DNA of 64,000 nucleotides from Escherichia coli (GTDB taxonomy: Bacteria > Pseudomonadota > Gammaproteobacteria > Enterobacterales > Enterobacteriaceae): assembly GCF_024502345.1 (NCBI RefSeq), contig NZ_JALDNN010000001.1; one strand, 5' to 3'. This document shows positions 1-3,278 of the stretch, in pieces; the first letter of the stretch is position 1, and each line of letters begins with the position of its first letter. The notes below the pieces were generated by a model, which saw only the letters and a program-made list of their open reading frames with translations, was not told the origin of the DNA and did no database searches. The translations under genes were made by a program, and so were the position numbers.

Positions 1-240
1 ATCACTATCACACAGTTCCGGCCCGCTATGAGTGGCATGTCAGTATGCGGTGATGCGCTTAACGGTGACGAGTGGCCATTTACCTGGCGGATAAATGCGC
101 CACAAACAACGATCAAGTATTCGCTTGCTGGCGCGTCCTACTGCGGAGATCCGCTCGCATCGTGGGGCAATAAACAACTGGAGTGTTCAATCAACAAAAT
201 TGCCCCATCCCATCTGAACATCATTTTCAATTATTCATAA
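1..240 (+). CDS. 3' end of a phage structural gene (probably tail fibre), partial; reading frame is open from window start
   Basis: Frame 1 is open from position 1 to the stop at 238-240; sits directly upstream of tail-fibre-like and Tfa genes. Product assignment is by context only. Confidence 0.35.
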   Translation: MTITQFRPAMSGMSVCGDALNGDEWPFTWRINAPQTTIKYSLAGASYCGDPLASWGNKQLECSINKIAPSHLNIIFNYS

Positions 241-291
241 CTGATATTTCCCCCTCTGATTTTATCGCTTAACACTAAGTGAGGATTAACT

Positions 292-924
292 ATGCTCCGA
301 ATCGGGCAAGTCGAAGCCACTGCAACGCAGGATGGCAAATATACTGATGGAAGTGTTGCTGGTGGTATTGCCGCAACGAGGCTGCGGGCAGCAGCGTTTA
401 ATGCCATGCAGGAAGAGTTAGCGCATATCGTAGAGTCAGCAGGATTGGCGCTCGACATTAACGATATGACTCAGGTTTTAAAAGCCATTCAAAAACTCAC
501 ACTGAGCCGTGCAAACCCATTTGCCGATATCAAATCAGATGGTGCAGCGGCGATTTCTACGGCTCTCACAAACCTTGGATTGGGCGAAGCGGCGAAATGT
601 AACGTTGGAACTAGTGCTAACCAGATCCCCGATATGTCGTTTTTCACATATTCAAACGGTGTTTATAGATTCCCCAATGGGCTGATTCTGCAAATATTTA
701 ACAGGGTAACATCAACTACAGATACAACTACAGCATTTACTTTCCCTACGGTTTTTCCTGATTCATGCCACGGCATTTTTTCGACATATAACTCGGGGAC
801 AGCAGGTAACTACTACACGTTCAATAATGTGACTCCTGCGGGTGCAAATATGCAGGCGTTTCTCGGGTCGCCCACACCTACCAAGGGCGGCAGTACTGCA
901 ACAATAGTTGCGTTCGGGAGGTAA
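292..924 (+). CDS. phage tail-fibre-like / receptor-binding-module protein (210 aa), hypothetical
   Basis: ATG at 292 preceded by GAGGA; stop overlaps the start region of the downstream Tfa gene (TAATAATG). Size and position resemble short side-tail-fibre genes that pair with tfa in lambdoid cryptic prophages; called by context, not by recognised motif. Confidence 0.45.
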   Translation: MLRIGQVEATATQDGKYTDGSVAGGIAATRLRAAAFNAMQEELAHIVESAGLALDINDMTQVLKAIQKLTLSRANPFADIKSDGAAAISTALTNLGLGEAAKCNVGTSANQIPDMSFFTYSNGVYRFPNGLILQIFNRVTSTTDTTTAFTFPTVFPDSCHGIFSTYNSGTAGNYYTFNNVTPAGANMQAFLGSPTPTKGGSTATIVAFGR

Positions 925-926
925 TA

Positions 927-1352
927 ATGCAATACGCCTATAGCCAGTCGCAGAATCTGTTTTATGTGCGTGAGTGGGAGCGTGACTACGGGGATTCATG
1001 GCCTCAAGATTGCCTTGATGTATCCGACGAGCAATTCAGAGAGTTCAGTGTTGAGCAAGCACCTGGAAAGGTTCGCTCACCAGGTATTGATGGTCTTCCA
1101 TGCTGGATTGACGTGCCACCGCCAACGCAAGACGAATTAATCGCTATAGCTGCTGCAGAAAAACAGCGACTGATTGCTGCTGCTAACGAATTTATGAATG
1201 GGAAGCAATGGCCCGGTAAGGCGGCAATTGGTCGGCTGAAAGGCGATGAGTTGTCGCAGTACAACTTGTGGCTGGATTATCTCGACGCCCTAGAAGCGGT
1301 CGACACCTCCAGCGCACCAGATATCAACTGGCCTATTCAGCCGGAAGTGTAG
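927..1352 (+). CDS. tfa: phage tail fibre assembly protein (Tfa family)
   Basis: 141-aa product ends ...LDALEAVDTSSAPDINWPIQPEV, matching the conserved Tfa C-terminal motif (lambda Tfa ends ...VDTSTAPDIEWPAVPV). GGGAGG Shine-Dalgarno upstream. Confidence 0.75.
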   Translation: MQYAYSQSQNLFYVREWERDYGDSWPQDCLDVSDEQFREFSVEQAPGKVRSPGIDGLPCWIDVPPPTQDELIAIAAAEKQRLIAAANEFMNGKQWPGKAAIGRLKGDELSQYNLWLDYLDALEAVDTSSAPDINWPIQPEV

Positions 1353-1492
1353 GCCATTCCGGGTCTGCTGTATCAACGTGCATCAGCAGCACCCGGTATT
1401 TCTTTCACTCGCTTAGAGCGGTGGTTTCTTCCTCCGTCGCAATACCTGCATCAACAGCATCCTGACGCCGGTCAATCTCTGAGTCTGCCTGC

Positions 1493-1520
1493 GCTCGTAA
1501 ACCAACCTTTTTTATAACCA
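1493..1520. other. candidate Hin/Gin/Pin-family crossover site (hix/gix-like)
   Basis: CTCGTAAACCAACCTTTTTTATAACC resembles gix (TTCCTGTAAACCGAGGTTTTGGATAA), about 60 bp upstream of the invertase gene. The match is imperfect and no partner site was found in the window. Confidence 0.3.
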
Positions 1521-1576
1521 TCAAAAATCTGGTGATGCTTCGCCGTTTCTCCTGTTTTCATAACAGGAGAAATCCC

Positions 1577-2131
1577 ATGATTTACGGTTATGCCCGAGTA
1601 TCAACAAACCACCAGGACACTGAATTGCAACTAACGGCGCTCAAGTCAGCGGGTTGTGAGAAAATTTTTGAAGAGCATGCCAGCGGGAGGAAATCGAATC
1701 GGCCGGTTCTAAAACGGCTCATCGCCACTATGCAGCCGGGGGATGAACTGGTGGTATGGAAACTAGATCGCCTCGGGCGAAGCATGCGAAATTTAGTGCT
1801 GCTGGTCGACGAACTCCGACAGCGGGGCATTCACTTTAAGAGCCTCACGGACAGCATTGATACATCAAGTCCAATGGGGCGTTTTATATTTCACATCATG
1901 TCAGCGCTGGCGGAAATGGAAAGAGAGTTAATCGTCGAACGCACCCGGGCTGGATTAGCGGCTGCGCGGGAAAAAGGGAGAATAGGTGGCAGACGTCCAA
2001 AATTAACTCCCGAGCAATGGGCACAGGCTGGGAGATTAATATTAAACGGCGTGGATAGAAAACAAGTGGCAATAATTTATGATGTCGCTGTATGCACGCT
2101 TTATAAAAAATTTCCGGTGGGGCAGGCTTAA
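1577..2131 (+). CDS. pin: site-specific DNA invertase, serine recombinase (Pin/Gin/Hin/Cin family)
   Basis: 184-aa product starting MIYGYARVSTNHQDTELQ, with the catalytic Ser in YARVST and a C-terminal HTH; AGGAGA Shine-Dalgarno 7 nt upstream. The longer ORF from 1532 is an in-frame upstream Met. Confidence 0.9.
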   Translation: MIYGYARVSTNHQDTELQLTALKSAGCEKIFEEHASGRKSNRPVLKRLIATMQPGDELVVWKLDRLGRSMRNLVLLVDELRQRGIHFKSLTDSIDTSSPMGRFIFHIMSALAEMERELIVERTRAGLAAAREKGRIGGRRPKLTPEQWAQAGRLILNGVDRKQVAIIYDVAVCTLYKKFPVGQA

Positions 2132-2173
2132 ATGATAAAAGGGCAGCTGCTAGATAGGCTGCCCGTCAAAGTA

Positions 2174-2437
2174 TTATCCATTTTGCCGGACAGTTGGAAA
2201 TTCAGACGTCAGCCACATGTCAGATTCATCAAACATTTCCTCCAGCATACGGTTCAGCTTTTCCCGATCACTTTTGCTGGCATCACTATTTAAGCCGTTC
2301 GCCTGCATCGGCTTTACCTTCACTTCGGCATCAGGAAAAATCTGGTGCACCCGCTTCGTTAGTTCAGCCAGGATGATCTCTCTGGCCCCTTGGAGTCCTT
2401 CAACATTTCGCTTGTCATAAACCAGTTCAACAAACAT
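2174..2437 (-). CDS. dinI: DinI-family DNA-damage-inducible protein (prophage-encoded)
   Basis: 87-aa product MFVELVYDKRNVEGLQGAREIILAELTKRVHQIFPDAEVKVKP...DMWLTSE matches the DinI family in length and sequence; LexA box about 60 bp upstream. Confidence 0.8.
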   Translation of the reverse strand: MFVELVYDKRNVEGLQGAREIILAELTKRVHQIFPDAEVKVKPMQANGLNSDASKSDREKLNRMLEEMFDESDMWLTSEFPTVRQNG

Positions 2438-2495
2438 ACCGATCCTCTCATAAGTGAAAATTGCCTGTGCTTGATCTGTTTTTATAAAAATACTA

Positions 2496-2511
2496 CTGTA
2501 TATGCATACAG
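2496..2511. promoter_or_regulatory. LexA (SOS) box, CTGTATATGCATACAG
   Basis: Perfect CTGT-N8-ACAG palindrome with AT-rich spacer, between the divergent dinI-like gene and the two-gene cassette. A possible sigma70 promoter (TTGATC-17-TACTGT) for the plus-strand cassette ends just upstream of the box. Confidence 0.65.
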
Positions 2512-2536
2512 TCAATAAGCGAGTGAGGGTGCGTTC

Positions 2537-2776
2537 ATGCCTCGTCAACCGGATATTCGTGCTGCTTTTATTGCGGCCATACAGCAAAACCCGAAGGGCT
2601 ATCTCTGCCTGCATACAGACAGATTCATCGCTGAACTGCAGGAGAGGCGCTGGCACTTCAGCCAGGCGGATGCAAATTCATGGATCGAACGATACCAGCC
2701 AGACTTCGCCGATAAGACGACAAACGGAAGTGAGAACCGATACTGGATCCTGCGTAACATGGGGAGGGTTTTCTAA
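2537..2776 (+). CDS. hypothetical small protein (79 aa), first gene of a coupled two-gene cassette
   Basis: ATG with GAGGG Shine-Dalgarno 7 nt upstream; stop overlaps the start of the next ORF (TAATG). Soluble, Trp-rich, no recognisable family. Confidence 0.45.
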   Translation: MPRQPDIRAAFIAAIQQNPKGYLCLHTDRFIAELQERRWHFSQADANSWIERYQPDFADKTTNGSENRYWILRNMGRVF

Positions 2777-3096
2777 TGGGGTTTCCATCGCCAGCCATGG
2801 ATTACCAGGAGCAGCGCATGACAATAGATGTTATCTGTGGTGTAGATAACAACTGCCGGGTTATTGAAACTTCATGCGGCTGGGCCGTTATAAACGTCAG
2901 TCTTAAGCCAGAAGGAGGGGATACGTTGCTGGTTAGCATGGACGGGAGAAACCAGTTCGTGAAGCTAATGGGCCACGCGCTGATCACTCAAGATGGTGAA
3001 GCGATAGAAGGGGAAGCTTTGAATGACGTAACGGTACACGGCGTTCTAACACATACACTTAACCAAGTTAAGGACGATAAATCGCCTGTAATGTAG
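2776..3096 (+). CDS. hypothetical acidic protein (106 aa), second gene of the coupled cassette
   Basis: ATG overlaps the upstream stop by 1 nt; GGGGAGGG Shine-Dalgarno upstream; followed by a hairpin terminator. No recognisable family; alternative in-frame start at 2797 (MDYQEQ). Confidence 0.45.
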   Translation: MGFPSPAMDYQEQRMTIDVICGVDNNCRVIETSCGWAVINVSLKPEGGDTLLVSMDGRNQFVKLMGHALITQDGEAIEGEALNDVTVHGVLTHTLNQVKDDKSPVM

Positions 3097-3161
3097 CGTG
3101 TAAATGTCGGGGGTTATTCCCCCATTTTTCCCCAATGATTCCCCGTACAAATTTCAAACAT

Positions 3162-3190
3162 AAAAAAACCAGCCGTAAGAGGCTGGTTTT
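3162..3190 (-). terminator. rho-independent terminator downstream of proL (probably bidirectional)
   Basis: CCAGCC-GTAAGA-GGCTGG hairpin flanked by an A-run on the plus strand and a T-run on the minus strand, directly 3' of the tRNA and 3' of the plus-strand cassette. Confidence 0.6.
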
Positions 3191-3201
3191 CAATGTGTTT
3201 T

Positions 3202-3278
3202 TGGTCGGCACGAGAGGATTTGAACCTCCGACCCCCGACACCCCATGACGGTGCGCTACCAGGCTGCGCTACGTGCCG
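3202..3278 (-). tRNA. proL: tRNA-Pro (anticodon GGG)
   Basis: Reverse complement reads CGGCACGTAGCGCAGCCTGGTAGCGCACCGTCATGGGGTGTCGGGGGTCGGAGGTTCAAATCCTCTCGTGCCGACCA: 77 nt, cloverleaf-compatible, encoded CCA end. Confidence 0.95.

Follow-up and report, generated by a model that had tools for sequence, protein, structure and literature searches.

A one-armed e14-type Pin switch in an Escherichia coli prophage that retains both crossover sites and its invertase

Does a tail-fiber switch that has kept its invertase and its crossover sites, and only one of its two arms, still invert? The question is raised by positions 292 to 2131 of a stretch of 64,000 nucleotides from Escherichia coli (RefSeq assembly GCF_024502345.1, contig NZ_JALDNN010000001.1; the whole stretch is called the window below), where a tail-fiber gene, the fiber assembly chaperone gene tfa and the DNA invertase gene pin follow one another on the plus strand. 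An earlier note, made from the sequence alone, had taken this locus for a collapsed or one-armed switch, or else for one whose partner site falls outside the window on its left. Here, we report that the locus is an e14-type Pin switch in which both sites and the invertase are intact and a single arm is left, an anatomy that we regard as secure. The first half of the earlier proposal is thereby borne out (one tip and chaperone set, 927 bp between the site cores versus 1,530 to 2,041 bp in two-armed relatives), while the second is not, as the partner site lies at 563 to 588. It is somewhat more probable than not (roughly 55%), judging from the sequence, that the segment still inverts, in which case the fiber would be either ON or replaced by a stub of 127 amino acids (aa). 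The features of the locus are as follows.

28 to 240, plus strand: 3' end of a baseplate gene of the Mu gp48/YmfQ type; last of the constant tail genes ahead of the fiber gene
292 to 924, plus strand: tail-fiber gene, 210 aa (Pfam Gp53-like_C match)
292 to 576, plus strand: fiber constant part, residues 1 to 95
563 to 588, no strand: left crossover site, CTCTCACAAACC-TT-GGATTGGGCGAA
577 to 924, plus strand: gp53-like variable tip of the fiber, residues 96 to 210, diverging from relatives after 578
577 to 1503, no strand: cassette of 927 bp between the cores (putative invertible segment), delimited by identity across prophages
927 to 1352, plus strand: tfa, tail-fiber assembly chaperone gene, 141 aa (Pfam Caudo_TAP, E=2e-28)
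1333 to 1503, minus strand: remnant of an opposed tfa, (G)LRAQADSEIDRRQDAVDAGIATEEETTALSE-stop-KKYRVLLMHVDTADPEWPTLPAE-stop, from translation and alignment to intact opposed copies (tfa')
1492 to 1517, no strand: right crossover site, CGCTCGTAAACC-AA-CCTTTTTTATAA
1545 to 1573, plus strand: 12-bp hairpin, predicted by RNA folding, that buries the pin Shine-Dalgarno sequence (GGAG, 1566 to 1569)
1577 to 2131, plus strand: pin, DNA invertase, 184 aa (Pfam Resolvase and HTH_7)

Two inverted crossover sites and a fiber with a constant part

A half-site position weight matrix, trained on two-armed loci only, plus the pin-side flank of L023 and L024, was used to scan the 64 kb. The best match was 563 to 588 (25.5 bits) and the second best 1492 to 1517 (19.6 bits), both within the range of the training sites (16.6 to 34.0 bits), while the third-ranking 26-mer scored 9.3 bits. 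The highest maximum among 20 shuffles of the window was 20.2 bits, a value that the left site exceeds and that the right site, taken alone, only approaches; the right site sits, however, at a fixed offset 5' of pin that is common to every relative. The mean maximum of the shuffled windows was 13.7 bits, compared with 9.3 for the best real match outside the switch; site-like 26-mers may be underrepresented in the real sequence.

The left core (TT, 575 to 576) lies inside codon Leu95 of the fiber gene, and the right core (AA, 1504 to 1505) lies 72 nt before the pin ATG. As the cores read TT and AA, respectively, the two sites are in inverted orientation. The locus therefore has two 26-bp inverted sites with matching central dinucleotides, one in frame at the constant/variable junction of the fiber and the other beside the invertase. 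The gix-like sequence that the earlier note had placed before pin, at about 1493 to 1520, is the right site. In contrast, its statement that the window holds no partner site was mistaken: the "very weak look-alike" it mentioned near 570 to 595 is the left site itself, at the very place where the alignment of the E. coli ECONIH4 and KMi029 loci diverges.

Both sites have counterparts in related prophages. In position and outer half, the left site matches the left sites of 11 two-armed relatives, e14 among them, and it lies at the constant/variable boundary, as do its equivalents in K-12 e14 and 10 other two-armed loci. These relatives, K-12 e14 included, read CTC(T/G)C(A/G)(C/A)AAACC-TT-GGTTTGGGAGAA at the left site (a close variant in the P2-like ones) and TTCTCCCAAACC-AA-C(C/G)TTT... 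directly 5' of the invertase gene. At the right site, two-armed relatives share without change both the outer half and all sequence beyond it on the right. When the complement of its inner half, GGTTTACGAGCG, is taken, 10 of 12 positions agree with a half-site of the Phi1 and Phi4 segments of strain EC958, for which inversion was observed (PMC4134206, Table 3). In e14, experiments have defined the ends of the P segment as the repeats TTGGTTTGGGAGAAGG and CCTTCTCCCAAACCAA (PMC12529663).

The fiber open reading frame (ORF) has its own ATG at 292, a Shine-Dalgarno sequence at 281 to 285 and an in-frame TGA at 280 to 282, just as the earlier note described. That it is not joined to a constant N-terminal part could not be upheld. 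Window positions 1 to 576 are identical in L001 (ECONIH4), L002 (KMi029), L020 and L022, which bear other tips. In the alignment with L001 and L002, both of which carry the tail module of the window, identity extends across 1 to 578 and divergence begins within CTCTCACAAACCTTGG.... Because the left core falls in codon Leu95, residues 1 to 95 are the constant part and residues 96 to 210 the exchangeable tip. The fiber protein is 33% identical to K-12 StfP, which has the same layout, and the Tfa protein is 50% identical to K-12 TfaP. The exact Tfa protein of the window is indexed in 73 blocks of public assemblies.

The missing arm

In two-armed relatives, one tip and tfa lie on the plus strand and a second set, tfa' and tip', on the minus strand, with 1,530 to 2,041 bp between the cores in the 11 relatives compared. 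The window holds one such set plus a remnant of the other. Contrary to the view that the window contains nothing of an opposed gene set, the minus strand at 1333 to 1503 encodes the stop-interrupted C-terminal 55 codons of a tfa, in which a TGA (1407 to 1405) replaces a Trp of the intact homologues (tfa' of JML285 and ECONIH5). A peptide identical to that of the remnant, P0121, carries PF02413. The N-terminal part of the opposed tfa and the entire alternative tip are gone. The remnant continues directly into the inner half of the right site; intact tfa homologues read ...LRAIAD or ...LRVIAD, and therefore the homology extends into the half-site TTACGAGCG.

Both in the window and in L022, a sister locus with a different cassette, the break coincides with a site core or is only a few bases away from it. 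Breaks at such places suggest that the invertase may have deleted the arm by recombining the right site with a second one, either internal (L008 has such a site) or a quasi-site; the relatives available for comparison at this junction are 78 to 82% identical. The P2-like prophage locus L008 (9637 to 11560) has three sites: left, internal and right. Its internal site, CGCTCGTAAATG-AA-CGTTTTAGCTCC, lies just after the remnant and shares its orientation with the right site, and a deletion between the two would yield a one-armed form.

The Pin invertase

All relatives of pin align from the ATG at 1577, which is its true start in place of the GTG at 1532 chosen by the ORF finder; the gene ends at 2131. 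The protein matches PF00239 (E=4e-49) and PF02796 (E=1e-11) and is 73% identical to K-12 PinE. Residues 1 to 182 align to the Gin structures 3uj3 and 4m6f (E=5e-80), with the catalytic Ser9 present; 4m6f shows the wild-type RVST motif. Pin is a small serine recombinase with a catalytic Ser and a C-terminal helix-turn-helix and, by these matches, is a member of the Hin/Gin/Cin/Pin subclass. In Hin, residues K47, R48 and K51 (basic helix B) and Q151, R154 and L155 have been tied to activation by Fis and the enhancer (PMC3798978). Five of the six, which in Hin contact the Fis-bound enhancer, are kept in Pin, as K46, R47, Q150, R153 and L154, and the sixth, K51, corresponds to Ala50.

Identical Pin is indexed in 91 blocks of public assemblies, and most of the ten places listed adjoin two-armed switches, whose homologous cassettes lie in either orientation. 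Between the right core and the stop codon of pin, only 13 differences, all synonymous, separate the window from most of these two-armed loci, and the first 216 bp from the right core (1504 to 1719, through nt 143 of pin) are identical to them. On these features, Pin looks functional.

The hairpin before pin has a folding energy of -25.5 kcal/mol (z = -4.5), and none of 200 shuffles was as stable. As it buries the Shine-Dalgarno sequence, and as its stem is kept in L015 and L018 despite different flanking pairs, the predicted fold suggests that translation of the invertase is throttled.

Predicted consequences of inversion and evidence for it

In the proposed mechanism, Pin would bind 563 to 588 and 1492 to 1517 and invert the 927 bp between the cores. 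In the orientation of the window (ON), residues 1 to 95 are fused to the gp53-like receptor-binding tip, with tfa cotranscribed. In the opposite orientation (OFF), the reading frame of residues 1 to 95 would continue through 32 more codons, of which the dead opposed tfa supplies 31, to give a stub without a tip, and the tip gene and tfa would lie reversed next to pin. With one tip set left, the switch would therefore turn a fiber ON and OFF, and not exchange tip A for tip B.

Inversion in silico creates the new sites CTCTCACAAACC-TT-GGTTTACGAGCG and TTCGCCCAATCC-AA-CCTTTTTTATAA. The product is an in-frame protein of 127 aa in which residues 1 to 95 are followed by GLRAQ...TTALSE. The predicted flipped form has the left junction ...ACAAACCTTGGTTTACGAGCG and the right junction ...TTCGCCCAATCCAACCTTTTTT. 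An in-frame fusion is thus predicted where the earlier note saw no sensible inversion product, and an equivalent one exists in a P1-like element. The half-site GGTTTACGAG is used by EC958 prophage segments, and the segments with this half-site were found in both orientations in PacBio reads (PMC4134206).

The P1-like element is L010 (9085 to 12026 of GCA_020345525.1, ABDAKN010000075.1), whose C segment measures only 927 bp and is the window cassette. Here, the cassette lies flipped between the 3' end of cin and a P1-type S constant part. The S ORF encodes 486 aa and ends with ...VIQYLHLRAQADSEIDRRQDAVDAGIATEEETTALSE and a stop in the dead tfa remnant, while the tip gene and tfa point towards S. 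As a P1-type phage could not have been propagated with such a fiber, it is simplest to assume that a one-armed segment has inverted. The exact 486-aa product was also detected on a Logan contig (L037), which is possibly not independent of L010. Exact look-up yielded no ON form of the P1-like locus, and matches in PLSDB stop at the site.

Alternative explanations

It is highly improbable that the locus belongs to an intact, larger switch with its partner site and an opposed fiber set beyond the left window edge. The window does begin inside the prophage, with the left part of the element outside it, but in every relative this leftward region holds the constant baseplate genes gp45 to gp48 on the same strand, and a site further left would flip these essential genes. 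Furthermore, the fiber constant part begins at 292, the left site lies inside it at 563 to 588, and such a layout occurs in 0 of about 20 related loci. A partner site beyond the edge was rejected because of the left site and the constant baseplate genes leftward of it. Invertible regions have been reported to disturb assemblies (PMC4134206), so that one of two real arms might have been collapsed or skipped by the assembler. This is more improbable still: the arms of such switches are not mutual repeats, so collapse is not expected, and NCBI, ENA and Logan assemblies that are independent of one another show the same 927-bp segment with the same junctions on different backbones, for which reason an assembly artifact was rejected.

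The alternative that carries most weight, although it remains somewhat doubtful, is a locked relic, i.e., the same deletion derivative of an e14-type switch without meaningful inversion, in which Pin is an orphan retained by chance or acts only in trans, on the invertible segments of other prophages of the genome. Several results count against continued inversion and fit such a relic. All 7 to 8 recovered contigs with a one-armed, Pin-linked locus are ON (a small sample, and not an independent one), and no flipped product is recorded. A search with the junction peptide against 5.8 billion protein clusters returned only remnants and normal fibers, and no chimeric protein for a Pin-linked one-armed locus. 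The predicted chimeras of 127 aa and 191 aa gave zero matches by exact look-up. The flipped junction pattern was found 0 times in IMG/VR, where the unflipped junction itself occurs only once. As no flipped copy linked to Pin was found, a locked relic has to be reckoned with. The sister locus L022 has a right site that has lost its inner half, and all 9 contigs of this form are ON. L013 has AAATG and not AAACC beside the core.

Features of the sites and of the invertase also tell against inversion. The inner half TTCGCCCAATCC has a T where 16 of 16 training half-sites have an A, CGCTCGTAAACC agrees with TTCTCCCAAACC at 8 of 12 positions, and the exact left inner half is without direct evidence of use. 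Pin has Ala50 at the position of Hin Lys51 and so lacks the equivalent basic residue. The K51A substitution lowers Fis-activated inversion by Hin (PMC3798978), and this position was Lys or Arg in the 15 DNA invertases aligned in the eLife 2013 paper. Invertases of this subclass depend on a recombinational enhancer with two Fis sites inside the invertase gene; a crude consensus scan, uninformative in itself, detected no pair of Fis sites 47 to 49 bp apart. Furthermore, the OFF state gives the phage no obvious benefit. Action in trans is documented for PinQ on e14 (PMC12529663), and the EC958 Phi4 segment inverts even though its own invertase is truncated (PMC4134206). However, both window sites score within the functional training range, the window bears the consensus AAACC and not AAATG, and even the AAATG variant of the cassette is flipped in L010. 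With respect to a target in trans, the 64-kb window holds no other site-like sequence. On balance, continued inversion of the one-armed segment, with the fiber ON or cut to a stub, is the reading that we favor.

The cassette on other phage backbones

Through the exact Tfa protein, the cassette was traced to backbones of five kinds: Mu-like (L011), lambdoid (L013), P2-like with both an invertase and a second arm (L008), P2-like lacking an invertase (L009 and L012) and P1-like (L010). The 927-bp segment is 100% identical in L008 (925 of 927 bp covered) and L011 and 99.2 to 99.7% identical in L009, L010, L012 and L013. The flanks of the cassette are unrelated between backbones, and identity does not extend past the two cores (in L013, it already stops about 25 nt inside the left one). 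The junction of remnant and half-site also occurs next to other tip sets in L014, without any invertase in lambdoid prophages that bear a diversity-generating retroelement, and as short ORFs in several genera. It gave 0 matches in each of two scans of GTDB species representatives and 2 in JGI metagenomes, both unflipped. The lambdoid loci L005 (1968 to 4130; E. coli ET5), L004 (CP53) and L038 have the same tfa remnant and a degenerate crossover site and no invertase. The retroelement of ET5 comprises avd and a reverse transcriptase gene, and a SUMF1-type gene is present in ET5 and CP53.

One-armed forms linked to pin were also found in L011/L035, L013/L032 to L034, L014 and L022/L025 to L031. 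Compared with the window, L022 (4855 to 6555) is identical in the constant part (576 of 576 positions) and in the pin region (628 of 628). It shares with eight further contigs a different one-armed cassette, of 788 bp, which is in the ON orientation in all nine. Its right site lacks a site-like inner half, in the place of which stands unrelated sequence that starts at the core, with the break 1 nt after the tfa stop codon. As this group bears a different one-armed cassette on an identical backbone, one-armed forms are recurrent.

One-armed cassettes, made up of half-site, tip, tfa, dead tfa stub and half-site, could even be a stable class, and not products of decay, that serves as fiber ON/OFF switches and as mobile units which invertases transfer precisely from one phage to an unrelated one through exchange at both cores, although we consider this unlikely. 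It would fit the 99.2 to 100% identity of the cassette on Mu-like, lambdoid, P2-like and P1-like backbones, its junctions with at least 5 different outer half-sites on the remnant side and its occurrence in both orientations relative to the constant part. The window and L022, with identical backbones that differ only between the cores, are also consistent with such a class.

Comparison with known switches

The closest known system is the P segment of e14 in K-12, served by PinE (stfP-tfaP / tfaE-stfE-pinE), the inversion of which has been measured experimentally (PMC12529663). Its genes follow the YmfQ/gp48 baseplate gene in the same order as in the window, the fibers are of 209 and 210 aa, respectively, and the crossover site lies near codon 96. 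Both loci share the outer half of the left site, CTCTC(G/A)(A/C)AAACC-TT, and have the right site 66 to 72 nt before the invertase ATG. In contrast, e14 has a second, opposed set (tfaE-stfE) and 1,825 bp between the cores, compared with 927 bp and a 55-codon remnant in the window.

The G segment of Mu (Gin) and the C segment of P1 (Cin) are served by recombinases of the same subclass as Pin, as indicated by the match to the Gin structures, and follow the same logic: the tip and its chaperone are invertible, and a 26-bp site is where the tip joins the constant part of the fiber. These segments are 3 to 4 kb long and contain two complete Sv-U sets. For the C type, the likeness is a direct one, as the window cassette itself lies inside the P1-like C-type segment of L010; there, however, the site adjoins the 3' end of the recombinase gene, whereas the window site adjoins the 5' end. 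The H segment of Salmonella Hin is about 1 kb long, close to the 927 bp of the window, and has ON/OFF states and two 26-bp sites, one of them beside the invertase gene. Unlike Hin, which moves a promoter and whose gene lies inside the H segment, the window switch, with pin located outside its segment, would replace a coding 3' end by a dead end. The multiple-inversion Min region of plasmid p15B has extra internal sites, comparable to the third site of L008, whereas the window has only two. According to Sandmeier (1994; cited in PMC4134206), crossover sites reportedly act as module boundaries in fiber genes, where homology between the fibers of unrelated phages ends.

Genomic setting

Positions 1 to 3200 of the window form the right-hand end of a prophage, which borders on tRNA-Pro(GGG) (3202 to 3278, minus strand) and yejM. 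The host element is an e14/SfV-like prophage inserted at this tRNA gene. The baseplate gene at 28 to 240 has a subthreshold Pfam match to Phage_Mu_Gp48 (29.1 bits versus a cut-off of 37.4), and its DNA is the same as that of the YmfQ-family genes annotated in ECONIH4 and KMi029. The 224 bp between tfa and pin contain no long ORF. Downstream of pin, a DinI-family gene lies on the minus strand at about 2174 to 2437 (the ORF called at 2174 to 2656 overextends it), and two small ORFs, at 2537 to 2776 and 2776 to 3096, precede the tRNA gene; the L016 homologue of the latter has a weak Peptidase_S24 match. A search of the complete RefSeq E. coli genomes showed the arrangement of the window locus to be absent from them.

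Implications

For annotation, exact coordinates can be given to the 26-bp sites of this locus. The 210-aa ORF represents a complete fiber with a constant part of 95 residues, and the apparently intergenic positions 1353 to 1531 are a dead tfa and a crossover site. The locus illustrates the decay of two-armed host-range switches. The comparison also provides a clean case of a fiber-tip cassette that is nearly unchanged in four phage morphotypes and bounded at recombination cores. The kind of system is well known, and the idea of core-bounded sharing of fiber modules is reportedly old (Sandmeier, 1994); the one-armed, possibly ON/OFF, variant and the core-bounded cassette are modest additions to it.

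If inversion persists, the fiber would toggle between present and absent and not between two specificities. Inversion in a cryptic prophage can protect the host, as PinQ and the StfE2 fiber of e14 act against phage T2 (PMC12529663), and a host-side role for such switch remnants is therefore worth testing.

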